A stretch of 62,311 nucleotides of DNA, filler included, from 6 parts of 6 records of this genome joined end to end with filler, not necessarily neighbours in it, one strand, 5' to 3'; positions 3,125-57,246 are shown, counted from the whole stretch's first letter. Notes: a model not told the origin generated them from the sequence alone. Numbers and translations: made by a program.

Positions 3125-3437
3125 CTGTTCCTCCTTGTCATTTTATCTATGCATTGTGACAAAAATGTCAAAAGCAGCGGCGAAGATTACTCGACGCAAT
3201 GGGCAATACAAAATCAAAGATGTTACAAGGCATTACAAAATGAGTGAAAAATACACCAAAACAACCAATTAAGCAGTCATTTAAACCATAATATTACATA
3301 TATAAAACATTATGCGTTATTAAATGTAATTATTAATTAGCAAAAGCAACTGTCACGCTAAGCCCTTTCTATCATTAGCTTTCACGTCTCAATGTGGTAT
3401 TTTTGCTTTTTTGGGAAACGAAGATTTACTGACCAAC

Positions 3438-4133
3438 ATGCACTCAACATCTCCTATTGCTGTTATTGAAACGCCATACAAAGAAAAATTTTCGGTTCCT
3501 CGTCAGCCGCGTTTGGTTCCTAGTGCATCCGCGAGAATAAAATTGCTAGGCGACTTAAACTGTATGGAAGCTATTCGAGGCATTGAGCAATTTAGCCATT
3601 TGTGGATTCTGTTTTTGTTTGACCAAAATTTAGCCGCGGGTTGGAAGCCTACTGTTCGCCCCCCTAGATTGGGCGGAAACGAACGCGTTGGCGTTCTCGC
3701 ATCACGCTCGACATTTCGTCCAAATGGTATTGGTATGTCGGCAGTAGAGCTGCACGGTATAAATAAAGAGGGCGATCAAATCTATATTGAAGTGGGAAGC
3801 GTTGATCTGGTCGATCAAACCCCGATTATCGATATCAAGCCTTATATCCCCTACTCCGACGCCATCGTCGATGCGCAAGGTGGCTACGCAGATAGTGAAC
3901 CTGAAAGAGTCGAAGTCCTATTTTCAGAACAAGCGCTAAAAACGTTAAACAAGTCGCCCAACGGGCAAGCACAACAAGCGGTTATTCGAGAAGTTTTAGC
4001 TCAGGATCCTCGTCCAGCCTACAAAAAGAATAAGCCTGACGACAAAGAATACGCAGCAAATTTGTACGATTTGAACGTAAAATTCACCGTTACAGGTAAC
4101 TTAGTGACGGTTACCACGATTGAACACTTTTGA
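3438..4133 (+). CDS. trmO: tRNA m6t6A37 methyltransferase TrmO (TsaA)
   Basis: PRQP, TVRPPRLGGN, SRSTFRPNGIG and DIKPY motifs; lies upstream of proS. ATG 3438 preferred to TTG 3411. Confidence 0.92.
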   Translation: MHSTSPIAVIETPYKEKFSVPRQPRLVPSASARIKLLGDLNCMEAIRGIEQFSHLWILFLFDQNLAAGWKPTVRPPRLGGNERVGVLASRSTFRPNGIGMSAVELHGINKEGDQIYIEVGSVDLVDQTPIIDIKPYIPYSDAIVDAQGGYADSEPERVEVLFSEQALKTLNKSPNGQAQQAVIREVLAQDPRPAYKKNKPDDKEYAANLYDLNVKFTVTGNLVTVTTIEHF

Positions 4134-4231
4134 CATTGGCTTTTGGCTGATATTATAAGCGGCTAAACAAAATTTCCGCCGTTGTAACTTCAATGGCGAT
4201 TTATCATCACCAAAATAAACGGATACCATAA

Positions 4232-5947
4232 ATGCGTACCAGTAACTATCTTCTTTCAACTCTGAAGGAGACTCCAAACGACGCAGAAGTTGTGAGCCAC
4301 CAGCTCATGCTACGTGCAGGTATGATCCGTAAGCTAGCTTCAGGTCTTTACACCTGGCTACCTACAGGTCTGCGCGTAATGCGTAAAGTCGAAAACATCG
4401 TTCGTCAAGAAATCGATAACGCAGGCGCAATCGAAACTTTGATGCCCGTTGTTCAGCCGTTTGAACTATGGGAAGAGACAGGCCGCTCAGAAAAAATGGG
4501 CCCCGAGCTACTTCGCTTTACTGACCGCCATACTCGTCCGTTTGTACTTAGCCCAACAGCTGAAGAAGTGATTACCAGCCTTGTTCGTAACGAAGTGAGT
4601 TCTTACAAACAACTGCCATTAAACCTGTACCAAATCCAAACCAAGTTCCGCGATGAACGCCGCCCTCGCTTTGGTGTCATGCGCTCTCGCGAATTTTCAA
4701 TGATGGATGCGTACAGCTTCGATATTGATAAAGAAGGTCTGCAAAAATCGTACGATGCGATGCACGATGCTTACTGTAAAGCATTCGATCGCATGGGGCT
4801 GGATTACCGTCCGGTACTTGCTGATAGCGGTGCTATCGGTGGTAGCGGCTCTCAAGAGTTCCATGTTCTTGCCGAAAGTGGCGAGGATCTAATCGCATTC
4901 TCAACAGAATCCGATTACGCGGCAAACATCGAAAAAGCAGAAGCGGTAGCTCTAGCAGAAGAAGCAGCTGCACCAACTCAAGAGATGACTTTGGTTGATA
5001 CACCAAACGCGAAAACAATCGCTGAATTGGTTGAACAACATGGTCTGCCTATCGAGAAAACAATCAAGACTCTATTCTTCAAAGCGTCTGATGAAGTTGA
5101 AGCACCAATCATCGCATTGCTTGTACGCGGCGACCACGAGCTGAACGAAGTAAAAGCAGAAAACCTTCCACAAGTTGCGGCTCCATTAGAGATGGCGACA
5201 GAAGAAGAAATCCGTGCGCTTGTCGGCGCAGGCCCAGGTTCTCTAGGCCCTGTTGGTTTGAAACTACCTTTCATTGTTGATCGCAGTGTAGCGGTCATGA
5301 GTGACTTTGGCGCAGGTGCAAACATCGATGACAAACACTACTTCGGTATTAACTGGGGACGTGATGTTGAACTGGGTCAAGTTGAAGATCTGCGTAACGT
5401 TGTTGAAGGTGATCCTAGCCCATGTGGTAAAGGTGCCATCATGCTTAAGCGTGGCATCGAAGTCGGTCACATCTTCCAATTGGGTAAGAACTACTCAGAG
5501 AAAATGAACTGTGGTGTTCTTGGCCCAGACGGTAAAAACGTTATCCTAGAAATGGGTTGTTACGGTATCGGTGTAACTCGTGTTGTTGCTGCTGCTATCG
5601 AGCAAAACCATGACAAATACGGCATTATCTGGCCAGATGCTCTAGCACCATTCCAGGTGGCTATTGTTCCAATGAACATGCACAAATCTGAGCGCGTTAA
5701 AGAAGAAGCTGAGAAACTATACGCTGAGCTAACAGCGGCAGGTATCGAAGTACTATTCGACGATCGTAAAGAACGCCCTGGTGTTATGTTCTCTGATATG
5801 GAACTTATCGGCGTACCACACACGATCATCATTGGTGACCGTAGCATGGACGAAGGTAACTTCGAATACAAAAACCGTCGCACAGGTGAAAAAGCACCGG
5901 TTGCAATGGCAAATATCATCGAGCACATTCAGTCTCAATTGGCTTAA
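4232..5947 (+). CDS. proS: Proline--tRNA ligase
   Basis: [34 protein letters not shown] and [10 protein letters not shown] motifs. Confidence 0.98.
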
Positions 5948-5965
5948 TATCGAGATACTTCTCTT

Positions 5966-5991
5966 AAAGGCTGCCTTGTGCAGCCTTTTTT
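5966..5991 (+). terminator. Intrinsic terminator after proS
   Basis: AAAGGCTGC-CTTGT-GCAGCCTTTTTT. Confidence 0.8.
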
Positions 5992-6140
5992 ATTTCACAT
6001 TGTTTAAAAATCACCCTTCCTTTAAGTAACTTTGAGCTGGCTCAAAGGTCGGCTTTGTCTTCATTCCTGTCTCTGTGTATATTGAGACCAATTATCATTT
6101 ATATAGCAGACATTGGATTCTGTACTCATAGGAAAAAGTT

Positions 6141-6347
6141 ATGCAAGTTTACGGTTGTTGCGATTTAGTACGTGAGCTTTACGCTCAAATTGGCAGTGGC
6201 GATCAAGCCTACATTCCTCAGGCAATCAGCTGCGCTGTTCGCGCACTGAACGATGTTGCTGCAGATACCTCCTTACCAAAAGAAGTTCGTGAAAAAGCCG
6301 CATTTGCAGCAGCAAATCTACTGATTTCTGATTTCGAGGATAAGTAA
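6141..6347 (+). CDS. yaeP: YaeP family protein (UPF0253)
   Basis: [20 protein letters not shown] and AFAAANLL. Confidence 0.85.
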
Positions 6348-6538
6348 TGAACTTGGCGAATTTTGCAACCATGGACACTGTGATGCTAATGAGCATAGTG
6401 AACATGAAACTGCGTGATGACTTCAACGGCGATTTAGATAAGCTAGTGGCTTACTTTGACATTGACCGAGCTGCGCTGGAAGCTAAGCTGGCAACCGCTG
6501 GGTTTGATTTTTTGCCTGAGGCTGGTCAGTTTCGTTGA
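6347..6538 (+). CDS. DUF4250 family protein
   Basis: MLMSIVNMKLRD motif; TAATG coupling to yaeP. Confidence 0.8.
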   Translation: MNLANFATMDTVMLMSIVNMKLRDDFNGDLDKLVAYFDIDRAALEAKLATAGFDFLPEAGQFR

Positions 6539-6547
6539 TGCTCTATA

Positions 6548-6649
6548 GGGATTAAAGGAACTGTCCACAAAGCGCTCGAGACATCCATGTGCGCTTAGAC
6601 AATGGCATCCATGCCCTTGTAAATTTGTTCCACCATACACTTTAATCTC
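6548..6649. repeat. Imperfect nested palindrome (REP/MITE-like)
   Basis: Outer GGGATTAAAG/CTTTAATCTC inverted repeat enclosing two CATCCATG-centred hairpins (6581-6590, 6604-6615). Confidence 0.45.
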
Positions 6650-6670
6650 TCAGTATGATTTAGAATCGAC

Positions 6671-6702
6671 AAAAAAGCGCAAACCAATCGGTTTGCGCTT
6701 TT
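6671..6702 (-). terminator. Intrinsic terminator after purL
   Basis: AAAAAAGCGCAAACC-AATC-GGTTTGCGCTTTT. Confidence 0.85.
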
Positions 6703-6743
6703 GTTTATATGAAATTTAGTGGTTTTAATTGACCAGCTGTCAG

Positions 6744-9700
6744 TTAACCAAGGTTCTTACGTGCGTTCTGGAACATACGCATCCAAGCGCCGTTTTCGCC
6801 CCAGCTATCAGGGTGCCATGAGTTCGCCACAGTGCGGAATACACGCTCTGGGTGAGGCATCATGATAGTGACACGACCATCAGCCGTTGTTAGACCAGTG
6901 ATTGCGTTTGGTGAACCGTTAGGGTTGTTCGGATATTGTTGAGTTGGGTTACCCAAGTTATCAACAAAGCGAACCGCTACCGTACCTGAATTCTCGATTG
7001 CTGCCAGGTGTTCATCATCACGAACTTCTACACGACCTTCACCGTGAGAAACCGCGATTGGCATGCGAGAGCCAGCCATTCCATCAAAGAATACAGAATC
7101 CGATTTCTGTACTTCAACCAAGCTGAAGCGAGCTTCAAAACGCTCAGATTCGTTACGCACGAAACGTGGCCATAAATCTGCACCCGGAATCAGTTCTTTC
7201 AGGTTAGAAAGCATCTGACAGCCATTACATACACCTAGAGAGAAAGTATCTTCACGCTTAAAGAACGTTTCAAACTGGTCACGAGCTTGTGCATTAAATA
7301 GCACTGACTTCGCCCAGCCTTCACCAGCGCCTAATACGTCACCGTAAGAGAAACCACCACAAGCCACAAGGCCTTGGTACTCTTCCAGTACAGCTGCACC
7401 AGTCAGGATATCGCTCATGTGGATGTCAGTCGCTTCAAAGCCAGCACGATCAAACGCTGCTGCCATTTCTACATGCGAGTTAACACCCTGTTCACGTAGA
7501 ATTGCCATCTTAGGCTTAGCACCTTTCGCAATGTAAGGCGCTGCAACATCTTCGTTAGTGTCGAAGCTTAGCTTCACGTTCAGACCTGGGTCAGAGTTAT
7601 CTTTCTTCGCTGCAAACTCTTGGTCTGCACACGCTGAATTGTCACGCAGCGCCTGCATCTTATGCGTCATTTCAGCCCAGATAGTGCGAAGCTCTGTTCT
7701 TGAGCGGTCAATCAGTACTGTTTCACCACAAGCGATAACCAACTTGTCAGAAGCTTCTACTGCGCCTACTACGTGTGAACATGCTGCTAAGCCGTTGTCA
7801 GCAAGAACAGCCAGTACAGCGTCAAGTTCATCGTTCTTAACCTGAACCACAGCACCTAGCTCTTCGTTAAACAATGCAGCTAGTGCATCTTCACCTAGAG
7901 CTTCAATGTTCGCTTTAACACCACAGTGACCAGCAAACGCCATTTCAGCAAGAGTCACGAATAGGCCACCGTCGCCTTTATCATGGTAAGCGATCAGCTT
8001 GTCGTTGCTGACTAAGCTTTGAATTGCATTGAAGAAGCCTTTTAGCTGCTCTGCGTTGTCCACGTCAGCAGGTTTGTCACCCAACTGTTTGTAAACCTGC
8101 GCCAGTGCAGTCGCACCCAGACGGTTCTTACCGTTACCTAGGTCGATAAGTACTAGGCTTGATTCACCTAAATCTGTACGTAGCTGTGGAGTTACCGTCT
8201 TGCGAACATCTTCGACACGTGAGAATGCAGTGATAACCAGTGAAAGTGGAGAAGTCACTTCTTTGTCTTCGCCATTTTCGTTCCACTTAGTCTTCATCGA
8301 CATGGAATCTTTACCCACAGGGATAGTCAGACCAAGAGCAGGACAAAGTTCTTCACCGACCGCTTTCACCGCTTCATAAAGACCTGCGTCTTCACCTGGG
8401 TGACCCGCTGGAGACATCCAGTTAGCCGATAGTTTGATACGTTTGATATCGCCGATCTCAGTTGCTGCAATGTTTGTGATTGACTCACCTACAGCCAGAC
8501 GAGCAGACGCACCAAAGTCCAGTAGTGCAACAGGCGTACGTTCACCCATCGCCATGACTTCACCGTGGTAAGTGTCATAACTTGCTGCGGTTACTGCGCA
8601 GTTCGCTACAGGAACCTGCCAAGGGCCAACCATTTGGTCACGAGCAACTAGACCCGTTACCGTACGGTCACCGATGGTGATAAGGAATGTTTTCTCAGCA
8701 ACAGCTGGAAGACGTAAAACGCGCTCAACTGCTTCATTCAGTTCAATACCTGAACGATCAATTGCTGGGCTCTCAACTTTCGCTGTCTTCGCATCGCGGT
8801 GCATCTTAGGTGTTTTACCTAGTAACACATCCATTGGCATATCAATTGGCGTGTTATCGAAATGCGTATCTTCCAGCTTCAATTCACGCTCTTCCGTAGC
8901 AACACCTACGACTGCGTAAGGTGCACGTTCGCGCTTACAAATAGCATCAAATGCCGCCATATTTTCAGGCGCAACCGCCATTACATAACGCTCTTGAGAT
9001 TCGTTACACCAAATTTCCAGAGGGCTCATTCCCGGCTCGTCATTTGGCACATCACGCAGTTGGAAGATACCGCCACGTTCACCATCATCAACAAGCTCTG
9101 GTAGTGCGTTAGAGATACCGCCCGCGCCCACATCGTGGATAAAAGAGATTGGGTTCGCTTCACCAAGCTGCCAACAACGGTCAATCACTTCCTGACAACG
9201 ACGTTCCATCTCTGGGTTTTCACGTTGTACCGAAGCAAAATCCAAATCTTCCGCTGACTGGCCAGAAGCCATTGAAGAAGCCGCACCACCGCCAAGGCCG
9301 ATGTTCATTGCAGGACCGCCAAGAACAATCAGGCTTGCACCGACAGGAATCTCTTTCTTCTGTACGTGTTCATCACGGATGTTACCTAAACCACCAGCGA
9401 TCATGATTGGCTTGTGGTAACCACGCACTTCTTCACCCGCGTGAGAAGTCACCTTCTCTTCGTAAGTACGGAAGTAACCTAATAGGTTTGGACGACCAAA
9501 TTCGTTGTTGAATGCTGCGCCACCCAGAGGGCCTTCAAGCATAATATCCAATGCATTAACGATACGACCTGGCTTACCGAAATCGGTTTCCCAAGGTTGT
9601 ACGAAGTTTGGAATACGTAGGTTCGAAGTTGTGAAACCAACTAAGCCAGCTTTTGGTTTACCACCAATACCGGTTGCACCTTCATCACGAATTTCACCGC

Positions 9701-21206: not shown

Positions 21207-21306
21207 NNNNNNNNNNNNNNNNNNNNNNNNNNNNNNNNNNNNNNNNNNNNTTAATTAATTAANNNNNNNNNNNNNNNNNNNNNNNNNNNNNNNNNNNNNN
21301 NNNNNN
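21207..21306. other. Artificial contig spacer
   Basis: 100-nt N run with central TTAATTAATTAA. Confidence 0.98.
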
Positions 21307-37484: not shown

Positions 37485-37584
37485 NNNNNNNNNNNNNNNN
37501 NNNNNNNNNNNNNNNNNNNNNNNNNNNNTTAATTAATTAANNNNNNNNNNNNNNNNNNNNNNNNNNNNNNNNNNNNNNNNNNNN
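37485..37584. other. Artificial contig spacer
   Basis: 100-nt N run with TTAATTAATTAA. Confidence 0.98.
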
Positions 37585-43679: not shown

Positions 43680-43779
43680 NNNNNNNNNNNNNNNNNNNNN
43701 NNNNNNNNNNNNNNNNNNNNNNNTTAATTAATTAANNNNNNNNNNNNNNNNNNNNNNNNNNNNNNNNNNNNNNNNNNNN
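43680..43779. other. Artificial contig spacer
   Basis: 100-nt N run with TTAATTAATTAA. Confidence 0.98.
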
Positions 43780-46871: not shown

Positions 46872-47001
46872 TTCCAATTAAAAACACTACAATTAAATCC
46901 TTTAATACAGGAGTTTTTTCAATTATGTTCAATTAAATATGCTACAAAAATGGCATAAATATATAATTTTAGATAAAAAGGTTAATTAAAAATGCTACAA
47001 T
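46872..47001 (+). repeat. Three putative TnsB-binding sites
   Basis: CAATTAAAAACACTACAAT (46875), CAATTAAATATGCTACAAA (46930) and TAATTAAAAATGCTACAAT (46983). Confidence 0.8.
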
Positions 47002-47024
47002 ATTACCTATTGAAAAGGTTAAAT

Positions 47025-47729
47025 ATGAAAATTTCTATGAAAAAAAGAAAAATAGGCTATACTTATGGCACCTCTTCTGGAGTATATTCATTTAGAAATG
47101 AAAAGAGCATCCAATATGAATCTCCACTAGAAAAAGATTTCATACAATTAATGGATAATAACAGTAATGTTACAGATATTGAAGGTCAACCTTTTACATT
47201 AAAAAATGAGAACTTTAAAGGGAATAAAGGAAACTATACTCCTGATTTTTTAGTACATTTTAAAACTTCATTGTATAGTAGTTTTGAAACTAAACCAATG
47301 CTAGTAGAAGTAAAACCCATCAATAATTTAATTAAAGATTGGAAAACTTTAAAACCTAAATTTAAAAATGCAATTAGATATTCAAAAAAGCAAAATTATC
47401 ATTTTAAAATCTTTACAGAAAATAGAATAAGAACACAAGAGTTTTATAATATAACCTTCATAAATAGATATAAAGACTATGATTATAATATCGATGATAT
47501 TGATGTAATACTAAATCATTTAAAAGTTATTGGTCAAACAACATTAGAGCATCTAATTACTCATTTATTTGTTACTGATTTTCAAAAGGGAAATGCTATA
47601 GGACTTGTTTGGCATTTAGTTTCATTAGATGTAATTAATTGTGATTTGTCAATGAAGCTAACTAATCATACTGTCCTTTGGCTCAATAGTGAAAAAGAAA
47701 AAAATTTAGGTATATTAAATGAAAATTAA
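47025..47729 (+). CDS. tnsA: TnsA endonuclease
   Basis: YESPLEKD, QP, YTPDFLV, LVEVKP and TE..IR motifs; ATG 47025 has an AAAGG RBS. Confidence 0.9.
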   Translation: MKISMKKRKIGYTYGTSSGVYSFRNEKSIQYESPLEKDFIQLMDNNSNVTDIEGQPFTLKNENFKGNKGNYTPDFLVHFKTSLYSSFETKPMLVEVKPINNLIKDWKTLKPKFKNAIRYSKKQNYHFKIFTENRIRTQEFYNITFINRYKDYDYNIDDIDVILNHLKVIGQTTLEHLITHLFVTDFQKGNAIGLVWHLVSLDVINCDLSMKLTNHTVLWLNSEKEKNLGILNEN

Positions 47730-49626
47730 AAATCTTAAAATTAATCGTAAAAAATTTAGTATTACTATTGATAATTACTATAAATATATTAATGATATAT
47801 TTAAGATTACTCAATTTATAGATTCAAATGAAGTAGTTGGTATTAATGTAAATACTAATGAAGTGAAAAGACTGTTAATTGAAACACTAAAACCTATTGA
47901 AGAAAAGGAAGTTATTAATCATAGCTTTTTTTATAAAGATATAGATGATTTAGCAGATAATGACTGGAAGACTATAAGTAAAAGAATGGAAGGTATTACT
48001 CCTATAATAAACGGTTCTACAAGAAAAGAGATTGAAGAGCATGCTAAGACAATTGGTGTTCACTATACAACATTATATCGTTGGTATAGAGGATATACAT
48101 CAATAGGTTCACCAATAGGTGTTTTAGGAAATAAAAGAGGAAGGAAAAAAGGTACTATTTTCATTGAAGAAGATATAGAGAAAATTATTCATGATGTAAT
48201 TGAAAATGAGTATCTTACTATCGAAAGACCAAGCATAAAATTTATAATTAATAAAATAAAAATTAGATGTTCAGAAAAAAATCTATCATTTCCAAGTAAT
48301 AATACAATTAGAAGTAGGATTAAACAATTATCTCAATATGAAATATTAAAAAAACAAGGGAATAAGGACAAAGCTAGAGATATTTATGGAGTTGCACCAA
48401 AGAAATATGAAGCATCTTATCCTTTACAAATTGTACAAATTGACCATACTAGAGTAGATTTAATGATTGTTGATGATGAATATAGAAAAGCTATCGATAG
48501 ACCATGGATTACATTAGCAATAGATATTTATTCAAGAATGATTGTAGGATATTATTTATCATTAGATGCACCAAGTGGAACATCAGTAGGAATGTGTATT
48601 GTAAATTCTATACTCCAAAAAAATAAACTATTATTAGATTTTGATATAGATGCTGAATGGAATGTCTGGGGGAAAATGGATCATATAGATACGGATAATG
48701 GAGCTGATTTTAGGTCACACTCTGTTGAAAGATCATGTTTAGCAAATGGTATTCACATTAAATTTAGACCAATAGGTAAAAAAGAGTATGGTGGTCATAT
48801 TGAAAGATTAATAGGTACTACAATGACTGAAGTTCATGATATTCCAGGAACTACATATTCAAATATCCAAGAAAGATTAAAATATGACTCAGAAGGAAGG
48901 GCATGTATGACTTTTTCTGATTTTGAGAAGTGGTTACTCCTATATATAACTAAAATTTACCAACATAATATTCATTCATCTTTAAATACAAGTCCTAGTC
49001 AAAAATTAAAAGAAGGAATTTTTGGAACAAAAGACAATGCAGGGACAGGATATCCACAAATTTCAAATGATCCAGTAAGCTTGACAATAGACTTTCTACC
49101 TACTATAAAACGAACCATTCAAAAAAATGGGGTTACAATTGATGGATTAAACTATTTTGATGTCGTTTTACGTAATAAAGTAAAAGGTTTAGAGAAGATG
49201 AAAACAAATATAAATTCTAAATCAGATGATAATAAATATATTTTCAAAAGAGATCCAAGAGACATCTCACATATATGGCTCTATGATGATATTCTACAAG
49301 AATATTTTTTAATTCCTCTTGCTAATCCTGAAATACCAAAAATGAGTTTATTTGAATTAAATGAAATAAAGAAAAATAAAAAACTTACTAAGAATGAAGT
49401 ATTAAATGAAAAACTAATTATTGATGGATATAAAGAACTTTACGAACATGTTAAAAATTCATTCAATAACTCAAAAAAACAAAGAAGATTTCAACAAAAA
49501 GTTAAAAATAATAGATTAAAATCATCCCTTAATACTTTTAAATCAACAGGAAAAAAAGTAGAAAACTTAAGTTTAAAAAATAAAGATGATAATTTATGGA
49601 ATGAAGAAATTCCAGATTTTGGATAG
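47719..49626 (+). CDS. tnsB: TnsB/TniA DDE transposase
   Basis: HTH (IGVHYTTLYRW), QIDHT, TDNGADF, GGHIERLIGT and Mu-like C-terminus RDPRDIS. Confidence 0.92.
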   Translation: MKIKNLKINRKKFSITIDNYYKYINDIFKITQFIDSNEVVGINVNTNEVKRLLIETLKPIEEKEVINHSFFYKDIDDLADNDWKTISKRMEGITPIINGSTRKEIEEHAKTIGVHYTTLYRWYRGYTSIGSPIGVLGNKRGRKKGTIFIEEDIEKIIHDVIENEYLTIERPSIKFIINKIKIRCSEKNLSFPSNNTIRSRIKQLSQYEILKKQGNKDKARDIYGVAPKKYEASYPLQIVQIDHTRVDLMIVDDEYRKAIDRPWITLAIDIYSRMIVGYYLSLDAPSGTSVGMCIVNSILQKNKLLLDFDIDAEWNVWGKMDHIDTDNGADFRSHSVERSCLANGIHIKFRPIGKKEYGGHIERLIGTTMTEVHDIPGTTYSNIQERLKYDSEGRACMTFSDFEKWLLLYITKIYQHNIHSSLNTSPSQKLKEGIFGTKDNAGTGYPQISNDPVSLTIDFLPTIKRTIQKNGVTIDGLNYFDVVLRNKVKGLEKMKTNINSKSDDNKYIFKRDPRDISHIWLYDDILQEYFLIPLANPEIPKMSLFELNEIKKNKKLTKNEVLNEKLIIDGYKELYEHVKNSFNNSKKQRRFQQKVKNNRLKSSLNTFKSTGKKVENLSLKNKDDNLWNEEIPDFG

Positions 49627-49634
49627 GAGAAATT

Positions 49635-50540
49635 ATGTCAAATAACTATAGCCATATACATAAAGATTTTTTACACTTAATGAAACTTTCAAAAAAAGAT
49701 AGAATAGCTGCACTTGATGAATCTTTTGTTATCCAATACCCAAAGGCAAATGAGATTATTCAGATAATGCTAAATTTAATGAATAAACCCAAAAAATACA
49801 GAATGCCAAACCTTTTAATAATTGGTGAACCAAATATGGGGAAGACTACAATTGCTAGAAAATTTTATGAAATGAATCCAAACAAAAAAATTGAAGATGA
49901 AAGGGGAGAAACACTAATTAAACCAGTTTTGTATGTTAATGTACAAGGACCTTCAGAAAAAGAATTTTATACTTCCATATTAGATCAATTTTGGGCTCCA
50001 TATAGAACAACACATCAAACTCTACAATTAAAACAACAAGCAATCCACCTTCTTAAAAAATGTAGTGTAAAAACTATTATTTTTGATGAGATACATAACA
50101 TATTGAATGGAACAGCAGGAAAACAAAGAGCAATCATGGATCAAATAAAAAATTTAAGCAATGAGCTAATGATACCAATGATTCTAATAGGAACTAAATC
50201 TGCGGCAATGGTTCTTTATACGGATATGCAACACGTTAGTCGTTTTGATGTAATAAAATTACAACCTTGGGAGTTAAATAATGATTTTAGAGGATTAATT
50301 AAAAGTTTTGAGAAAAGATTACCTTTAAAGAAAACATCTAATCTAACTACAAAAGAAAAAACAACTTTGCTATATGATATTTCACAAGGGAATTTGGGGA
50401 ATCTTCATAAAATACTTATAGAATGTGCAACATATGCTATAGAAAATGAATTAGAAGAGATTACTTTAGATGTAATAAAAAGATTTTTATTTATGAAAGA
50501 AAGTAAATCTACGAATCCTAAAGATTATGCTACCAGTTAA
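49635..50540 (+). CDS. tnsC: TnsC/TniB AAA+ ATPase
   Basis: RMPNLLIIGEPNMGKT Walker A, IIFDEIHN Walker B and QHVSRF. Confidence 0.92.
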   Translation: MSNNYSHIHKDFLHLMKLSKKDRIAALDESFVIQYPKANEIIQIMLNLMNKPKKYRMPNLLIIGEPNMGKTTIARKFYEMNPNKKIEDERGETLIKPVLYVNVQGPSEKEFYTSILDQFWAPYRTTHQTLQLKQQAIHLLKKCSVKTIIFDEIHNILNGTAGKQRAIMDQIKNLSNELMIPMILIGTKSAAMVLYTDMQHVSRFDVIKLQPWELNNDFRGLIKSFEKRLPLKKTSNLTTKEKTTLLYDISQGNLGNLHKILIECATYAIENELEEITLDVIKRFLFMKESKSTNPKDYATS

Positions 50541-50546
50541 TCTTAA

Positions 50547-50646
50547 NNNNNNNNNNNNNNNNNNNNNNNNNNNNNNNNNNNNNNNNNNNNTTAATTAATT
50601 AANNNNNNNNNNNNNNNNNNNNNNNNNNNNNNNNNNNNNNNNNNNN
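50547..50646. other. Artificial contig spacer
   Basis: 100-nt N run with TTAATTAATTAA. Confidence 0.98.
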
Positions 50647-51279: not shown

Positions 51280-51927
51280 ATGGCCAAGGCGCTCAACATA
51301 ATAAAAGCGTCAATACATAAGCCAAAGATAGAAACAATGGCGATCACGGAAGTCATTGATCGCATTGTGTCATTGAACCGTGGAATCAGTGAGTTTTGGT
51401 CTAAAAGTGATGGTTGGGCACCGGTTGAAGCAGCCGGTCTTCTAGGGAAATCGAGACTAGATTGGCAAGCATCAATGTCAGAGTCACTTCACCTATGGGT
51501 TCGCAAGCCAGCGAATGCTCTTACATCCGCCGAACTTATCTTGGCTTGGGTCAATCTGGGAACTTTAGTCGAAGGTACAATTAAGACACTGCTCTCAGTT
51601 TGGTATGATTCATACAAAGTGGACATAGAAAGCCTGAAGAAAGCCAATGCCTACAACAAAACCAAGCTCGTAGCATTCTCTCCTGATGGTCTTGGCTTGG
51701 AAAAGTTACGAACTTACTGCAAAGAACGAGGTTTGCTTGACCATGCCAGTAATGAATTTGTCTCACTAGTGCAGCAGCGGCGAAATGCCATACATGCATT
51801 CAAGGATCGTCCAATTGGAGATGGCAAAGAATTCCAGTGGGCGATCCGCCAATATCTTGAACTGCTTCGAATTGTGAACGCCAGGCTGCCCTATCCCGAT
51901 GGGATTTTTGAACCGCGCGAGTCATGA
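51280..51927 (+). CDS. Hypothetical protein with a HEPN-like RxxxxH motif
   Basis: All-helical; LGTLVEGTIK and QQRRNAIH motifs; GGAGG RBS. Confidence 0.6.
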   Translation: MAKALNIIKASIHKPKIETMAITEVIDRIVSLNRGISEFWSKSDGWAPVEAAGLLGKSRLDWQASMSESLHLWVRKPANALTSAELILAWVNLGTLVEGTIKTLLSVWYDSYKVDIESLKKANAYNKTKLVAFSPDGLGLEKLRTYCKERGLLDHASNEFVSLVQQRRNAIHAFKDRPIGDGKEFQWAIRQYLELLRIVNARLPYPDGIFEPRES

Positions 51928-52000: not shown

Positions 52001-53962
52001 TTACGCCGCATTCCTAAATCGCTCTTGCAGCAAAATCCCAACCCTATTTCGGATGATCAACCCGGCCTCACTGAGTAGCTTTTCTACCTTGGTAAGAGCG
52101 CTTTCATCCGTCGCGACGACCAGTACCTTTTTGAATCCTGAGAGAAGGTTCTGTTTGACGTTCCAAACAACGTCGCTTTTCCCTGTTTCGATCTCTATGG
52201 CAACGGTTTCATCGCCTCTGCTGGCAAGCACATCCGCATTGCCAGTAGCAGTTTTTCTGGGAGCTTCCAGAGCGACACGATATCCATCCTCTTCAAATGC
52301 CTTAGCGTAGTATCGTTTCCAGTACTCATGAGTTATTGAACCGCGCCCGAGGTTCTTCCTAAGACCAAGCCTGCCCCTTGCCTCGGGAGTAACTCTGAGC
52401 AGAACCTTGTAGGTTCTGCCAACTTTCACTTCCTCTTCTTCCAATATGCCATTCTCGATCAGAAGGTTTTTCAACCTGTTTCCCTTGTCGGCACTGAAAC
52501 CAATCCTCTTGTAGCGCGTCCGAACTCCATCGTCTTCGTGTTGCAACACATCCTCGAGAAATACAAACGCGTCCCCATCCAGAACTGCGTCATGAACGAG
52601 ATCAGGCGGGCTCCTGCCGTACGCTCTATCGACAGCGCGTTTCAACCCTCTCCTAGTCAGAGAGCCCTTCAGGAACCTACCCAACAGTTCGTCAGTCACA
52701 AGGCCTTTCCGCACTTTGACCAAGGGAACCGAAATCAAGAATGGCCGCCTCCAGCGATCTTGCAGCTTCACAACCGCCTGCCCGACGGGAAGCATGCTGA
52801 AAAACCTCTTTTCTGAGTCCTCAACCAACGACACGCTTGCGGCTTTGTTTATGTCGCTCGGGTCCCGTTGGTTTAAACAGATTGTCGTGTAGCTATTGCC
52901 CAGTGCGGCGCTTGAAATGAGATGTGGATGCTGATCAATAACGATGATGCCAATGCCGATTTCCCGACACTGTCGAAACAGCATATTCATCACGGATTCT
53001 TTAGATCGCTGCTCCTGTCGATACAGGACATGGTGCGCCTCCTCGACGAAGATCACGAGTTTTAGCTTTTCCCTCGCCGGCGAAGCTAGCTGCACGTAGT
53101 ACATCCACAAACACATCATCGGAATCAGGAATTTCTTTGCGCCTTGAGCGAGCGCATCGAGCTCAACGATCGTGTTGCCATCCAGCAGCTTATTGGTGAA
53201 GGCCTGCTGTGCGTCGCTGTTTGAAGAGGAAATCTCGGAAAATTCCAAACTTTCCAACGCCCTTATTGCAGTCGTCTTCCATCCTTTGACCCGTTCCTTC
53301 GCGGGGATATTCCTTACCTCAGCCAGAATGTCAGACACTGTTGGCATACGGTTTTCAATCCGATAGCAGGTCGCGATAGTCTTCTGAAGAACGCTTCGTG
53401 CACCATCCCCAAGCGTATAGGCATCGGCTATCACATCGACGACGTGATTGATGTAAACGCGTGGTTCCAGTCCCGGAGGAACGATGAAGGGGTTGAACGC
53501 AAACGGAGATAGCTTTCGCCCAGGCGTGTAAATATCTACTTGGCGTCTAAGCCTTGGAATCAAGTGTCGTGCAGTTCGCTTCCAATCCCAAAACAGAAAA
53601 GGGATTTTTTTCTCGACAAGTTGCTCAAGAACATGAAAGGCGACGTTGGTTTTGCCGCTTCCCGACATGCCGAAGATCCCGATATTCCGCATAACTTCGG
53701 CCCGGGATATTCCAAACTTCCATTTTTCCGCCTCGTAGATCACCCTCCCCAGATGGATTGATCTCTTCGCCTTCTTTCTTGGAGGCAACGACAGAAGCAC
53801 TTTATTCCTAAAATCTCCCAAAATCCGATGTGCAACGCCAATTATCTGTCTGTCCATCAGTGCCCGAACATCCGGTTCGGCCACGTCTCTTGCTCGATGC
53901 CAGTGCGCTATCCGCTCCGGCATCAGAGGTTCGAGTTTCCGGGCGAGTTTTTCGACATCCAT
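52001..53962 (-). CDS. HerA/FtsK/VirD4-superfamily ATPase fused to winged-helix and PD-(D/E)xK-like domains
   Basis: GMSGSGKT, FWDWK, VIFVEEAH, RQCREIGIGIIVIDQHP and LPVGQAVV motifs; C-terminal THEYW...NADVL...VAIEIETG. Confidence 0.8.
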   Translation of the reverse strand: MDVEKLARKLEPLMPERIAHWHRARDVAEPDVRALMDRQIIGVAHRILGDFRNKVLLSLPPRKKAKRSIHLGRVIYEAEKWKFGISRAEVMRNIGIFGMSGSGKTNVAFHVLEQLVEKKIPFLFWDWKRTARHLIPRLRRQVDIYTPGRKLSPFAFNPFIVPPGLEPRVYINHVVDVIADAYTLGDGARSVLQKTIATCYRIENRMPTVSDILAEVRNIPAKERVKGWKTTAIRALESLEFSEISSSNSDAQQAFTNKLLDGNTIVELDALAQGAKKFLIPMMCLWMYYVQLASPAREKLKLVIFVEEAHHVLYRQEQRSKESVMNMLFRQCREIGIGIIVIDQHPHLISSAALGNSYTTICLNQRDPSDINKAASVSLVEDSEKRFFSMLPVGQAVVKLQDRWRRPFLISVPLVKVRKGLVTDELLGRFLKGSLTRRGLKRAVDRAYGRSPPDLVHDAVLDGDAFVFLEDVLQHEDDGVRTRYKRIGFSADKGNRLKNLLIENGILEEEEVKVGRTYKVLLRVTPEARGRLGLRKNLGRGSITHEYWKRYYAKAFEEDGYRVALEAPRKTATGNADVLASRGDETVAIEIETGKSDVVWNVKQNLLSGFKKVLVVATDESALTKVEKLLSEAGLIIRNRVGILLQERFRNAA

Positions 53963-54068
53963 GTTTGCATGACCATGGACTGCGCGCTTTATAGAATTTG
54001 AACTGAATTATTGCCTACTACGCGTACGAATTGACAAACAGGAAGTTGACTTATTGCCCGAGTTAATT

Positions 54069-54403
54069 GCCGACGACATCAAGGGAGCCGTCATGTTCAT
54101 CGCGTGCCTGCCAGACACCCAATATCTGCTCGCCGACAAAGTCTATGACGCCGACCACTGGCAACAGCATCTGAAAGCCAGGCGCATTAGACCAATGAAT
54201 CCAAACAAGACCAACAGGAACCGGCCACATCCGTTCAGCAAGACCAGATATAAAGGACCACAACGTCATTGAGCGCATATTCGGACATCTCAAGGATTTC
54301 TGCCGCGTTGCAACCCGATACGACAAGACGTCGAAAACCTCATGACCGCCCTATGCTTGTCAGCCCTCATTTGCTATTGGAACTGAACGATCCACCTACC
54401 TAG
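54069..54403 (+). mobile_element. IS5-family remnant (frameshifted 3' part and right end)
   Basis: LLADKVYDAD...RYK / NVIERIFGHLKDFCRVATRYDK / LICYWN* followed by ...CCTAG. Confidence 0.85.
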
Positions 54404-54540
54404 GCGAGTGTACTGTCATATTTTTAGTCGTTAAGATAAACTGACTTAGAGGTATCAGCGTTCTCGGGAGGATTTCTCGATGCCAAGCCATTCGACGGAC
54501 GAAAACGAGACGAGGGATAATTCAGATTCTCACAAAAACG

Positions 54541-54804
54541 AACGTCCACAAAAGTCCGCGGGCCGCGGAAGCCCTCGCAGAGCGTGGCGCCTGGTTCCTG
54601 TTCCTGCCGAAATACTCGCCCGACCTGAACCCGATCGAAATGGCGTTCGCCAAGCTCAAAACACTCTTGCGAAAGGCCGCCGCACGCACCTATGACGAAC
54701 TCTGGCGGGCAATCGGCAACATCTGCGACCTGTTCGACCCCGACGAATGCCGGAACTTCCTCAAAAAGGCTGGATATGTTGCAGATTAATCGCCCGACGC
54801 TCTA
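54541..54804 (+). mobile_element. IS630-family remnant (3' part and right end)
   Basis: NVHKS...FLFLPKYSPDLNPIEMAFAKLK...ECRNFLKKAGY* (stop at 54789), ending GCTCTA. Confidence 0.88.
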
Positions 54805-55233
54805 GGTACTCAACATTTTGTGTTTGGCTAATAGCGAGAGCAATCGATCATTCAGCGCGTCCATTTTCGTCGCGTGAAAAACAACAAATCGCCGCCTTTC
54901 CTGGGCAATATCTCCCAGCCTTCTCTGCATTTTTTCCCGTTCAGGAAACCGATATGGAGAGTACCGGGGCGTTCGATCCTCCATCTGCATCAAATCGGTA
55001 TTCACATCGCACTCGCTTTGAAGAAGGTCGTACACGATTTTCTGTCCCATTTCGTGCGTTCGGGCGATTTGCTCCATCGTGAGCGCAATCTCGTCCTGTA
55101 GGGATGAACTTGGCAAAAAGGGAAACTCTTCCCGATTTTGATGAAGAACAATTTTTGAGGCTTTCTTTCGGAGCTGGTCTGAGAACGATTTTGGTAAATC
55201 TCCTGACCTGTCTTTTAAAGAGTTTTCCAGCAT
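54802..55233 (-). CDS. Hypothetical coiled-coil protein (143 aa)
   Basis: Intact helical ORF, co-oriented with and upstream of the ATPase. Confidence 0.7.
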   Translation of the reverse strand: MLENSLKDRSGDLPKSFSDQLRKKASKIVLHQNREEFPFLPSSSLQDEIALTMEQIARTHEMGQKIVYDLLQSECDVNTDLMQMEDRTPRYSPYRFPEREKMQRRLGDIAQERRRFVVFHATKMDALNDRLLSLLAKHKMLST

Positions 55234-55325
55234 AAGAAGATTGAAAGTTTCCGGTTTAATTTCCTTGAACTGAACAACAGTAGGTGTTGTTACTATCTGT
55301 GTAGTTTTTTAATTTAGCGTTGCAG

Positions 55326-55517
55326 TCATTCTACGAGCGTACCGCACTTGTCGCAGTACACCTGTCCATCGCGGTTTGTGAACCCCTCTGAAACCGACAT
55401 AATTTTCCTTCCCTCTCCGTGAAATACGGGGTTCTCGTTTTCTTCTATAATAACCGTTCCACAATGTTGGCAATTGGAGCATTTAATTTTTATTTCAAAT
55501 TCTTCCCGTCGTGCCAT
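55326..55517 (-). CDS. Small Zn-ribbon protein (63 aa)
   Basis: AAGGAGG RBS; CSNC...CDKCG. Confidence 0.7.
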   Translation of the reverse strand: MARREEFEIKIKCSNCQHCGTVIIEENENPVFHGEGRKIMSVSEGFTNRDGQVYCDKCGTLVE

Positions 55518-55683
55518 TTCATTCCTCCTTCAAGCGTCGATCTGAGATTTTCTTGGCCCAAATACCTGTGTGTTCGACGCGCTGTTTCAGTTCATATTTT
55601 AAAAAGGAAAAACACTTAGGTCCGTTATTAAAAAAGGACAGCGAAGAGTATTCCGCAAGAAGGGTGGGCTGTCTCTCACAAAA

Positions 55684-56265
55684 ATGGAGCTCAACTGTAT
55701 ATATCAGTGGCTAATACAAAGCGAGAATAGGAAGAGGATACTTGAAGATTTTAACCAGCCACTAACCGCGACGCAGATTTCCAACCGTACCGAAATCAAA
55801 CTTGATGCCTGCCTTCATCTTTTGTGGGGCATGCGTCTGTACGGAATTTTCTATGTCCTCAACGAGCGAACACGGTTCAATAGGCTGTATTGGCTGACAA
55901 AGGTAGGTCAATCGTGCCAGAACAACCTTCGTAAAGCGATGGCCTTGGGAAAGCTCACGTACCGTCTTCCGAAGATTTCATGGCATGCATATAGCTCTGT
56001 CTGCTACAGGCACCGCTCCGCTGTTATCAAAGCCTTGCACGAGCCCATGCAGGCCATAGCGATCAAACGGAAAGCACTTTCTCAGAATCCACATCTTCGA
56101 ATGAGTGCGAACAATGTTCGTGATGTTCTGAGATATCTTTTCAATCTGGGAATCGTTCGTAGAGTCCAACCCAAGAAAAAGGCTCACCCTCGATACGGAC
56201 TCACTGATCTAGGGATGACTTATAGAGAACTGCTTATGGGAGCACAGAATTGTCGAACGATTTGA
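55684..56265 (+). CDS. Tandem winged-helix protein
   Basis: Two similar halves: RKRIL..PLTATQI...LYWLTKVG and RSAVI..PMQAIAI...RYGLTDLG. Confidence 0.7.
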   Translation: MELNCIYQWLIQSENRKRILEDFNQPLTATQISNRTEIKLDACLHLLWGMRLYGIFYVLNERTRFNRLYWLTKVGQSCQNNLRKAMALGKLTYRLPKISWHAYSSVCYRHRSAVIKALHEPMQAIAIKRKALSQNPHLRMSANNVRDVLRYLFNLGIVRRVQPKKKAHPRYGLTDLGMTYRELLMGAQNCRTI

Positions 56266-56295: not shown

Positions 56296-56874
56296 TTACG
56301 TTCCAGTTATCTGCTTTTGAAGTGCCGGGTATAATTTCTCGACGAGAAATTCCGCAATCATAAGCGCAAGGAAAGCCTGCTGTTCTGAAATCATCTCGCC
56401 ACAATGAATGATCCTATTCCGAAGATCCCTTATGTCCGTCATTTCCTCCCAGACGCTCTTCGACGACACTTTCCGTTTAGCAGCCTTTAGATCCAGTCCG
56501 TTGTCCTCCAATACGGTGAACAGGAGCTTGCTGAATTGCCGGTTGTCAACCGCCATCTCGGCAATTAGTGGGCCTGTCGTTTCGTCATGAACCATACCGA
56601 AGACGATTGGTTTTAGAATGGCATCACGCAAAGCAATTTCGATTGTGGCCTGCGCAAACACGAGACAAGCCGAAGCGCTGACATCTTTTAGCTTTCGGGC
56701 TTCCTCTAGAACGGTTTCAGCAGGGGCAAGCAAATCAGGATGTTGTATGTAATACGACGCCATTCGTTCGGATACGAACTCATCGATAATCTCGTCTCGA
56801 TAATTATCTAGAACCTCTTGAACCATTTGGTCATAGGCTTCTTCCTGCCACGCCTCTTCCTGGGTCATACTCAT
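56296..56874 (-). CDS. Hypothetical protein with a HEPN-like motif
   Basis: AQATIEIALR and IRDLRNRIIHCG motifs; AAGGAGG RBS. Confidence 0.65.
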   Translation of the reverse strand: MSMTQEEAWQEEAYDQMVQEVLDNYRDEIIDEFVSERMASYYIQHPDLLAPAETVLEEARKLKDVSASACLVFAQATIEIALRDAILKPIVFGMVHDETTGPLIAEMAVDNRQFSKLLFTVLEDNGLDLKAAKRKVSSKSVWEEMTDIRDLRNRIIHCGEMISEQQAFLALMIAEFLVEKLYPALQKQITGT

Positions 56875-56937: not shown

Positions 56938-57146
56938 CTATAGTAAATCTACAATCCAAAACTCATCACCGACAACGCTGTAAAAAATGGTGATATCGGG
57001 CTTCAAAGAAAGGCTCCACAAATTGTCAATACGAAAGAGCTTTCTATACACCTCAGGAATCTCATCCCCGACAACTTCCCGACCAGCTCCCGGATTTCTT
57101 TCCAACACTCTGCGTGCATCGCACAAAACTCCATAGAGTCGCGTGT
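56938..57146 (-). CDS. RelE/ParE-fold-like small protein (5'-truncated)
   Basis: LERNPGAG...LWSLSL...IFYSV..DEFWIVDLL topology; open into the gap. Confidence 0.4.
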
Positions 57147-57246
57147 NNNNNNNNNNNNNNNNNNNNNNNNNNNNNNNNNNNNNNNNNNNNTTAATTAATT
57201 AANNNNNNNNNNNNNNNNNNNNNNNNNNNNNNNNNNNNNNNNNNNN
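57147..57246. other. Artificial contig spacer
   Basis: 100-nt N run with TTAATTAATTAA. Confidence 0.98.

Follow-up and report, generated by a model that had tools for sequence, protein, structure and literature searches.

Among the closest described systems are the DndH/DptH and HerA/FtsK-capture systems. In the excerpt of PMC10853773 on which this comparison draws, mobile neighbourhoods pair a HerA/FtsK ATPase with an active restriction endonuclease, a winged-helix (wHTH) domain and a protein of two to four wHTH units, and are read as counter-invader systems. As far as that excerpt covers them, these systems share three features with the module described here: a HerA/FtsK-clade ATPase and a restriction-fold nuclease in one polypeptide (active there, predicted in the module), a separate multi-wHTH protein in the operon, and mobile neighbourhoods with tyrosine recombinases. 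They differ in size and domain order, the module ATPase having 653 aa against about 1700 aa for DndH/DptH and being arranged as ATPase-wHTH-nuclease rather than nuclease-ATPase. Unlike DndH and the HerA/FtsK-capture systems, the module has no SF2, TRD or inactive methylase domains and no detected DndF, DndG or Orc/Cdc6 homologue; its partners are instead p143 and a zinc-ribbon protein, and it has its own cis box.

In the partial accounts of the HerA-DUF4297 and Sir2-HerA anti-phage systems used here, a HerA-type ring ATPase likewise accompanies a PD-(D/E)xK-type (DUF4297/Cap4-like) effector, but as a separate protein, whereas the module nuclease is fused through the wHTH; matches to the HerA models of PADLOC extend over a portion of the module ATPase domain only. 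CedD, which translocates DNA as a VirD4-like ATPase in the archaeal Ced DNA-import system, also belongs to the HerA-FtsK superfamily, and some of its orthologues lack a membrane anchor (PMC11823120, in excerpt); CedD has no nuclease, and the module has no Ced/Ted or T4SS partners. Residues 163-375 of VC1899 superpose on the wHTH and PD-(D/E)xK domains of the module together (Z 8.8, 174 aligned), but VC1899, Can2, Card1-type nucleases and AF1548 carry a CARF sensor domain where the module has its ATPase, and identity is only 13-14%. Streptomyces TraB/AICE elements are integrative elements with an FtsK-like motor and a C-terminal wHTH, and the Rep helicases of satellites carry an origin-binding domain. 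Both resemble the module, with its putative ring ATPase and sequence-reading winged helix, in being small integrase-borne elements built around one large conserved enzyme of this kind; in contrast to them, the module adds a nuclease and lacks a membrane region, a Rep and a primase.

In the literature searched we found no description of the module, and no named anti-phage system in PADLOC-DB 2.0.0 (libraries up to 2023) had all components matched. PADLOC returned partial ATPase-domain matches only and no family at all for p143 or wh193, which bears out an earlier note on this DNA that could not assign the genes to a named system. Membership in DndFGH/DptFGH was rejected (only the ATPase part of the DndH model matched, positions 1309-1599 of 1678, with no DndF or DndG), as were membership in HerA-NurA (22-27 bits against 800-970, with no NurA among scanned neighbours) and in CedD/VirD4-like systems (76.2 bits against 600, with VirB4 in none of five host MAGs).

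The window, by which we mean the whole stretch of 62,311 nucleotides analysed, is a chain of contigs joined by linkers of the form N44-TTAATTAATTAA-N44, so the low-GC flanks are not the genomic context of the trio. The trio itself lies on one 6.5-kb contig (50647-57146, GC about 0.49), and the adjoining contigs are unrelated (GC about 0.25). All three ORFs were found intact, placed and oriented as first described: the ATPase-wHTH-nuclease gene (653 aa; 52001-53962, minus strand), the co-oriented upstream gene p143 (143 aa, no known family; 54802-55233, minus strand) and the divergent gene wh193, encoding a predicted tandem winged-helix protein (193 aa; 55684-56265, plus strand). The 840 bases separating the ATPase and p143 genes contain a 72-aa ORF (54054-54272, plus strand) that covers only a C-terminal part of the NCBIfam IS5-family transposase model (positions 151-216 of 258, E 3e-6, 27 bits where the cut-off is 110) and is therefore an IS remnant, consistent with the IS debris reported there. 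Judged from its sequence, it is an insertion scar outside the module. A 63-aa zinc-ribbon ORF (55326-55517, minus strand), with two CxxC pairs and weak Zn-ribbon Pfam matches, is divergent from wh193.

Sequence evidence assigns the 653-aa protein to the HerA/FtsK clade of P-loop ATPases. It matched PF01935 (DUF87) over residues 69-278 with 29.7 bits (cut-off 23.2), and its ATPase profile matched solved structures of HerA (E 1.1e-8) and of the DptH ATPase domain (E 2.5e-6). Invariant motifs and profile matches place the ATPase domain at residues about 64-415 (52718-53773, minus strand). Within it, G98, S100, G101, G103, K104, E307, E308, R330, R333, D343 and Q344 are invariant in a 39-sequence alignment; on the same strand these correspond to Walker A (G98-T105, 53648-53671), Walker B (E307/E308, 53033-53050) and putative arginine-finger and sensor residues (R330/R333 and D343-Q344, 52931-52975), the HerA/FtsK residues being placed on strands by motif alone. 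For all 39 members CedD was the top-ranking NCBIfam model (lowest E 2.9e-27), although far under its cut-off (76.2 bits against 600 for the window protein, over residues 68-398), and HerA_antiphage gave weak matches in 37 of 39 (27 bits against 800 for the window protein). The protein contains no hydrophobic 19-mer above 1.6, and no transmembrane segments were found in the ATPase, p143 or wh193.

In an AlphaFold2 model spanning residues 415-653 (pLDDT 83.7), a nuclease core of alpha-beta-beta-beta-alpha-beta topology comes after a winged helix. The predicted wHTH (residues about 463-524; 52391-52576, minus strand), placed by the model and fold matches, consists of three helices and a beta hairpin with pLDDT above 90 and resembles ScpB (Z 10.4, rmsd 1.8, 74 aligned) and MarR-family regulators (Z about 10). 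The domain that follows (residues about 543-645; 52028-52336, minus strand) is a predicted PD-(D/E)xK nuclease: the model shows the core fold, with strands 2-3 bearing acidic residues, and a lysine. All 39 aligned sequences keep its residues E566, D577, E590, E592 and K595; K595 is nearly invariant in further alignments and located three residues past the usual position (ExExxK). The nuclease core aligned with AF1548 (Z 10.5, rmsd 3.4, 103 aligned), and Foldseek matches for the region included FokI, NucS, EcoT38I, Can2, Cdn1 and Bax1. None of the curated PD-(D/E)xK sequence families scored over threshold (17 of 36 members gave AHJR-like matches, the strongest at E 0.0011), and Cas4 (PDB 4r5q) was a weak match (E 0.04). 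Motifs and model support a fusion protein in which a soluble HerA/FtsK-type ATPase is joined to a winged helix and a PD-(D/E)xK nuclease, with motor and nuclease in one chain, as the earlier note had proposed.

The double winged helix attributed to wh193 was likewise recovered. Its model (pLDDT 94.9) contains two wHTH units, each of three helices plus a beta hairpin, and halves 1-89 and 100-193 each match single wHTH regulators (Z 10-13), which points to a tandem winged-helix protein. The top Foldseek match was ScpB (E 7.8e-4), with an rmsd of 13.4 over 198 columns when a KITE/ScpB-type placement was compared, and the protein is strongly basic (32 K+R against 11 D+E). Searches of family, PADLOC and structure-database profiles found no known family or solved relative for p143, whose 195 relatives have no Pfam domain and are all named hypothetical only. 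We identified a 65-aa zinc-ribbon gene, c1, as an additional member of the module, present in 20 of the 25 loci with room for it. The 63-aa zinc-ribbon ORF of the window occupies the conserved position of c1, with homology not detectable by the c1 HMM (E 5.5).

Relatives of the ATPase number at least 663 proteins, mostly from Planctomycetota and labelled only DUF87 or hypothetical; the best 120 of these have 54-77% identity over 95% or more of the query. We compared 80 de-duplicated loci, 71 of which include the ATPase N-terminus. Where 450 nt or more of upstream sequence was available, 47 of 65 loci had p143 and 37 of 65 had wh193 on the upstream side of the ATPase, and 28 of the 43 loci with 2 kb or more contained both. 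At these 43 loci p143 was absent from 12, and a tyrosine integrase (cluster c0 or c4, members of which match Pfam Phage_integrase) was present upstream in 19. Of 50 loci, 34 have p143 directly next to the ATPase (gap 63 nt or less) and 16 have it 0.2-5.7 kb distant; in 36 of the 37 loci with wh193, this gene is co-oriented. Pairwise identities of the trio also co-vary (Spearman 0.68-0.73, n = 23; 1 in 1000 permutations reaches the value), with a weak correlation between integrase and trio (0.11-0.18, n = 13). The expectation that homologues of the three genes co-occur was thus borne out, and with the linked integrase this supports the proposal that they form the core of an uncharacterised mobile element or defence system. 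The same note saw no integrase, which is correct for the piece itself but reflects its cut contig; a site-specific recombinase is linked to the module in relatives.

The full order of the proposed backbone is tyrosine integrase, divergent c1, wh193, p143, a variable-gene slot and the ATPase-wHTH-nuclease. Variable genes often intervene between core genes: N6/N4 methylases, C5 methylases, ArdC, RadC, an AAA_14/DUF4143 ATPase, IS elements and metabolic genes. Such an arrangement fits a backbone that has a slot for cargo, and would be unusual in a compact defence operon. Further downstream, islands at several loci carry CBASS, NACHT-NERD, nSTAND and HsdM genes.

A common 12-nt box, consisting of AAATCAGTTCAA and an A/T hexamer, lies about 43 nt 5' of module start codons, including that of the integrase. 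In the window it precedes all three genes: AATTCAGTTCAA, 4 nt and TATAAA (53988-54009, minus strand), the 12-mer starting 47 nt before the ATPase ATG; with the core kept, TGTTCAGTTCAA, 4 nt and ATTAAA (55255-55276, minus strand), starting 43 nt before the p143 ATG, a spacing that agrees with the class seen at other loci; and, again with the core kept, GTTTCAGTTCAT and TTTAAA (55584-55603, plus strand), starting 100 nt before the wh193 ATG. The favoured distance to the start codon is 43-47 nt, and 10 of 13 boxes 5' of wh193 genes lie at 97-118 nt. Counting co-oriented 12-mers with one mismatch or fewer within 120 nt upstream, in the same loci where the box was discovered, we found it ahead of 13 of 29 wh193, 8 of 45 p143, 5 of 76 ATPase, 5 of 10 c1 and 2 of 13 integrase genes, compared with 4 of 563 other genes. 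Sites numbered 52 in the 292 kb spanned by modules versus 10 in 412 kb outside, and the 8-nt core was counted 80 times, where 300 letter permutations gave a median of 17 and at most 53. At the divergent c1 gene the box is inverted along with the gene. A regulatory role for wh193 fits this common promoter-proximal box as its candidate target.

The trio is a conserved, unnamed module that travels with an integrase on planctomycete mobile islands. Between an element core and a defence system we lean towards the former, and we put the probability at roughly one half that the trio is the backbone, under common regulation, of an integrative island and that the ATPase-nuclease is the motor that processes its DNA. 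The genes co-occur in a fixed order, co-vary, admit variable genes between them and recur in several copies per genome, with three modules in one genome, G005, and the same 12-nt box marks the backbone transcription units, that of the integrase included. Under this scheme wh193, a basic single-chain double wHTH, would bind the asymmetric box and act as a single switch for the island genes, much as a phage or ICE repressor does; upon induction the integrase would excise the island. The soluble ATPase, as a putative ring, might then grip island DNA via its own wHTH and translocate it, with the PD-(D/E)xK domain cutting it, so that the excised DNA could be replicated, resolved, packaged or exported, and p143 could be an adaptor of the motor or of wh193. 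Because replicase, primase, relaxase, capsid and T4SS genes were not seen among scanned neighbours (for relaxase and T4SS, as first reported for this piece), the life-cycle steps after integration are a proposal. No att repeats were found in six loci and no circular contig was found; neither the 72,556 plasmid records nor the 50,697 phage records searched contained a full-length relative.

Coupling of a translocase with a nuclease follows the logic of restriction-type defence, which counts against an element core, as do the defence genes downstream at several loci. The main rival, which we consider less likely, is that the trio is a DndH-like payload fixed on the islands, providing restriction-like defence or acting against MGEs: the HerA/FtsK ring would load on foreign DNA and the fused nuclease cut it, with wh193 as a DndG-like DNA-discriminating or regulatory protein and p143 as a sensor or adaptor. 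The best PADLOC matches are to DndH (E 3.5e-13), mad8 and defence-type HerA, the profile match to the DptH ATPase domain agrees, and the neighbourhoods excerpted from PMC10853773 are interpreted as counter-invader. The wHTH-nuclease pair also resembles the CRISPR ancillary nucleases Can2 and Cdn1 and VC1899, and p143 is the fastest-evolving member (mean identity 39%). However, neither p143 nor wh193 matches a PADLOC model, no Orc/Cdc6 partner was present among scanned neighbours, the ATPase is well conserved and slowly evolving (mean identity 55%), the promoter box is common to the integrase, and ArdC anti-restriction genes and orphan methylases lie inside the module. Methylases are missing from most loci (cluster c7 occurs in 6, C5 methylase in 2), and the module is therefore no restriction-modification pair.

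Conjugative elements commonly have ArdC, RadC, DUF2958 and orphan methylases among their cargo, and MOBC relaxases have a restriction-endonuclease fold. All four kinds of cargo occur at our loci and CedD is the leading model throughout the family, so the ATPase might be a VirD4/CedD-like coupling protein fused to a MOBC-like nicking enzyme, with wh193 and p143 as relaxosome accessory proteins binding oriT. We consider this unlikely given the CedD score, the lack of transmembrane segments in the trio and of relaxase or T4SS genes among scanned neighbours, and VirB4 (PF03135) in 0 of 5 host genomes, although in MAGs absence is weak evidence. T4CP (PF02534) was found in 1 of 5 host MAGs, barely over its cut-off (21.5 bits), and TIGR00929 matches in the 5 MAGs were all far below cut-off and included the module ATPase family itself. 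Least probable, and already disfavoured, is a housekeeping repair complex for end resection, modelled on HerA-NurA, the classical motor-nuclease pair, with the nuclease fused on. The HerA-family ATPase fold is compatible with it, but HerA equivalog models fall far short of their cut-offs, no NurA, Mre11 or Rad50 was seen among scanned neighbours, and integrases, IS elements and variable cargo accompany the module, whose distribution is patchy and multi-copy, with 1 to 3 close copies per genome.

The three genes reported in the earlier note were all present as described on the 6.5-kb contig at 50647-57146: a 653-aa HerA/FtsK-type ATPase (52001-53962, minus strand), a co-oriented 143-aa protein (p143, 54802-55233, minus strand) and a 193-aa tandem winged-helix protein (wh193, 55684-56265, plus strand). 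The insertion-sequence debris said to lie between p143 and the ATPase was recovered as an IS5 transposase fragment in the spacer, and no hydrophobic stretch reached the usual threshold for a membrane segment in any of the three proteins. The ATPase scored 29.7 bits with Pfam DUF87/HerA (cut-off, 23.2), and 39 aligned family members were invariant at Walker A (G98-K104), Walker B (E307/E308), R330/R333 and D343-Q344. By motif, the last two sets match HerA/FtsK hallmarks described in PMC10853773, namely an arginine finger and a Q sensor-1.

The proposed fusion of this motor to a winged helix and a nuclease was supported by the DUF87/HerA score, the invariant motifs and the predicted structure of residues 415-653 (36-sequence alignment; pLDDT 83.7, pTM 0.68), in which a predicted winged helix of three helices and a hairpin precedes an alpha-beta-beta-beta-alpha-beta core. 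The modelled nuclease core resembled AF1548 (Z 10.5, rmsd 3.4, 103 residues aligned), the modelled winged helix resembled ScpB (Z 10.4) and MarR-family regulators (Z ~10), and the two jointly aligned with VC1899 over 174 residues (Z 8.8). Foldseek matches of the same region were to FokI, NucS, EcoT38I, Bax1, Can2 and Cdn1 (E 8e-4 to 8e-3), and nuclease residues E566, D577, E590, E592 and K595 were kept across family alignments. By sequence alone, the nuclease fell under every family threshold, with an AHJR-like match in 17 of 36 members and Cas4 at E 0.04. Searching with the C-terminal module returned 1113 clusters (50% identity) at E <=0.001, and every relative whose N-terminus is present joined it to the same ATPase. 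A standalone wHTH-nuclease family was considered and rejected, the short matches being N-terminally cut or IS-truncated ATPases.

The double winged helix claimed for wh193 was likewise upheld by its predicted fold of two winged-helix units (pLDDT 94.9), with each unit resembling single wHTH regulators (Z 10-13). It is a strongly basic protein and lacks profile similarity to the wHTH of the ATPase (E 0.15). p143, a putative coiled coil in the earlier note, belongs to no family of Pfam, PADLOC, NCBIfam or PHROGs and has no solved relative; coiled-coil matches of its profile against the PDB were at chance level (best E 0.027).

Relatives of the ATPase form a large family of at least 663 full-length proteins, the best 120 of which share 54-77% identity with it at a query coverage of at least 95% and are named only as hypothetical, DUF87 or HerA-domain proteins. 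Named family records were mostly from Planctomycetota, including a Brocadiales protein with 76% identity, and the ten genome loci comprised eight from Phycisphaerae, Pirellulales, Planctomycetaceae or Planctomycetes, one from Gemmatimonadota and one unclassified. One host genome carries three modules, and in the remaining hosts a single close copy is accompanied by distant paralogues. IMG/VR contained a single relative, of 28% identity and without partner genes. Distant paralogues of ~700 aa with the same architecture and 24-35% identity were found at three fetched loci (L084 5931-9860, L085 5324-9685 and L090 1-5885), each preceded by two conserved genes of ~190 aa and 200-240 aa that match no Pfam family. 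These genes form a parallel trio, with upstream members showing no detectable similarity to wh193 and p143 (E 0.63 and 0.26).

We collected loci around ATPase relatives (10 from genomes, 72 from metagenomes and 1 from a viral contig), searched them with local HMMs and left duplicate loci (L040, L060 and L064) out of the counts. Homologues of the three genes did co-occur in this neighbourhood check, which had been named beforehand: p143 was found in 47 and wh193 in 37 of the 65 loci with at least 450 nt upstream of the ATPase, and of the 43 loci with at least 2 kb upstream, 31 had p143, 28 had p143 and wh193 together and 19 had an integrase. Twelve of the 43 lacked p143, with IS disruption in some of these. 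The usual arrangement was wh193, p143 and ATPase in that order on the same strand (36/37 loci), and wh193 was inverted only in the window (55326-56265, including a zinc-ribbon ORF) and in L002 (3591-4163), the closest genome relative of the window locus (ATPase identity, 68%). The zinc-ribbon ORF and wh193 of the window seem to have been inverted together as one divergent unit, and a search for inverted repeats on its flanks yielded nothing notable.

When neighbouring genes were clustered, two integrase clusters emerged, one, of tyrosine integrases, spanning 16 loci and the other 7. A small gene, c1, was clustered from 11 loci and traced to 22 by an HMM; 20 of the 25 loci with room carry c1, a 65-aa zinc-ribbon gene mostly divergent from wh193. 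Among 23 loci, only 2 had a tRNA next to the integrase. The three proteins co-vary in identity (0.68-0.73, 23 loci), a type of correlation that is inflated by the shared ancestry of loci, and integrase identity co-varies weakly with that of the trio (0.11-0.18, n = 13). In many loci wh193, p143 and the ATPase are separated by variable genes, with gaps of 0.2-5.7 kb in 16/50 and 0.6-2.7 kb in 10/37; these genes encode, among others, orphan N6/N4 and C5 methylases, ArdC, RadC, IS elements and metabolic functions. Downstream of the ATPase we found HNH-like, DUF2958, DUF1281_C, CBASS, NACHT-NERD, nSTAND3, HsdM and PIN/HTH genes and small recombinases. The HNH-like gene (~140 aa, cluster c2), supported by PHROG HNH and resolvase matches, directly follows the ATPase on the opposite strand in 10 loci (for example, L020 11949-12428 and L023 11994-12404), in several of which a shared row of small genes including DUF1281_C comes next. 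At L074 (10882-13985), the ATPase is directly followed by genes for a peptidase of the ImmA/IrrE type, its HTH partner and a CBASS pair made up of a patatin phospholipase and a SMODS cyclase.

A k-mer count over the 300 nt upstream of wh193 genes revealed AAATCAGTTCAA in 17-22 of 27 loci, and mapping at <=1 mismatch yielded 61 sites. The consensus of this box is gC-AAATCAGTTCAA, then 4-6 nt and a TTTAAA/TATAAA-like hexamer, which in the -43 class lies ~25 nt from the start codon; the box takes the strand of the gene that it precedes. It occurred <=120 nt upstream of 13/29 wh193, 8/45 p143, 5/76 ATPase, 5/10 c1, 2/13 integrase and 2/8 DUF2958 genes and of 4/563 other genes. p143 and ATPase genes abutting the preceding gene mostly have no box of their own. 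The 292 kb of module span held 52 sites versus 10 in the 412 kb outside, and the core 8-mer was counted 80 times versus a median of 17 and no more than 53 over 300 permutations. As a small independent check, two further modules of one genome, obtained later, carried the box before int, c1 and wh193; all other counts were made on the loci that had yielded the motif. The paralogue loci L084, L085 and L090 lack it.

In the window, a box precedes the ATPase at 53998-54009 (one mismatch, TATAAA, 47 nt before the ATG), p143 at 55265-55276 (core with ATTAAA, 43 nt before the ATG) and wh193 at 55584-55595 (core with TTTAAA, 100 nt before the ATG). The 12-mer at two mismatches occurs across the whole window at chance level (12 versus 12.8 expected), and in the window only the one-mismatch copy (53998-54009) and those core copies whose position matches are taken as evidence. 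A sigma-70 consensus scan returned 7 sites versus 6.5 expected, none of them at boxes; the box is not a sigma-70 consensus. Its asymmetry would be in keeping with recognition by one polypeptide that carries two winged helices.

We give about even odds (roughly 0.5) to the trio and integrase forming the backbone of an integrative island controlled by one switch, based on the fixed order, cargo slots, multi-copy state, linked integrase and single box before integrase, regulator and motor genes. In such an island the motor-nuclease might act in replication, resolution, packaging or export. Several observations count against this: replicase, relaxase, capsid and T4SS genes were not seen in the scanned loci, att repeats were not found in six loci, circular contigs were not found, plasmid and phage collections contained nothing similar over the full length, and integrase co-variation is weak. 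A DndH-like restriction payload, the main rival, is a reading we hold more tentatively; it draws on the domain logic, on PADLOC and DptH matches and on the 'HerA/FtsK capture' neighbourhoods described in PMC10853773, but sits poorly with ArdC and methylases inside the module, with an integrase that has the common box and with an ATPase that evolves slowly.

It seems improbable to us that these are self-sufficient integrative elements lacking capsid and T4SS, with the HerA/FtsK-wHTH-nuclease as sole motor, which would constitute both a new class of bacterial mobile element and a new DNA-mobilisation enzyme. A terminase- or TraB-like enzyme would then read element DNA via its winged helix, cut it and pump it into a helper's particles or vesicles, or export it from cell to cell, and the tandem-wHTH protein and 12-nt box would be a dedicated repressor-operator switch that fires integrase and motor together. 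A T4SS-coupled module is very unlikely: CedD is the best curated match of the ATPase (PMC11823120), but VirB4 was found in 0/5 host MAGs and a marginal coupling protein in at most one.

PADLOC 2.0.0 has no model for the trio and no named system matched, which agrees with the earlier view of the set as uncharacterised. Each component falls within a known superfamily, and fusions of a motor to a nuclease in mobile neighbourhoods have already been published (PMC10853773). Full-text literature searches turned up no account of the trio architecture, of the partners, of the zinc-ribbon gene or of the box; the supplementary datasets of PMC10853773 might list the trio. The anatomy of the module is simple and fully specified, consisting of an integrase, a candidate regulator with its candidate operator and a single motor-nuclease. 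To our knowledge, hardly any mobile elements or genetic tools have been described for the Planctomycetota, a phylum that includes the anammox Brocadiales. An element backbone would open the way to integrative vectors and inducible promoters in this phylum and would place a HerA/FtsK motor-nuclease in element propagation. If the module is instead a defence system, it would be a small relative of DndH contained in one chain and more tractable than the ~1700-aa original. Under either reading, the pairing of box and regulator is a directly testable hypothesis.

Five N44-TTAATTAATTAA-N44 linkers (21207-21306, 37485-37584, 43680-43779, 50547-50646 and 57147-57246) join separate contigs in the window. 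GC content is ~0.49 on the contig of the trio, ~0.44 up to 43.7 kb and ~0.25 at 43.8-50.5 kb and 57.2-62.3 kb; because it differs so sharply between pieces, the source is probably a mixed bin. The low-GC contigs on either side are not genomic neighbours of the trio. The contig of the trio corresponds to positions 1972-8471 of a 28,724-base assembly record from the one public DNA run containing the stretch, which may be its source, and more flank therefore exists; the sequencing-run search found no RNA run containing it. We found no tRNA genes on the contig, no RNA families at E <=0.1 and no iterons or repeats beyond short two-copy matches. A 192-aa ORF (56296-56874, minus strand) contains an R-x4-H motif and resembles HEPN weakly (E 0.03-0.09), and the sole relative of a cut ORF (56938-57146, minus strand) adjoins wh193 in L002; the two ORFs probably represent variable cargo and may encode a toxin-like RNase. 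Convergent on the ATPase, a 215-aa ORF (51280-51927, plus strand) matched a family in none of four libraries and has no relative in the fetched loci. On the adjoining low-GC contig, a plus-strand Tn7-like transposition gene row (46992-50540), cut by the contig end, encodes a TnsA-like endonuclease (46992-47729), a Mu/TnsB-like transposase (47719-49626) and a TniB/TnsC-like ATPase (49635-50540; PF05621, E 8.6e-60).
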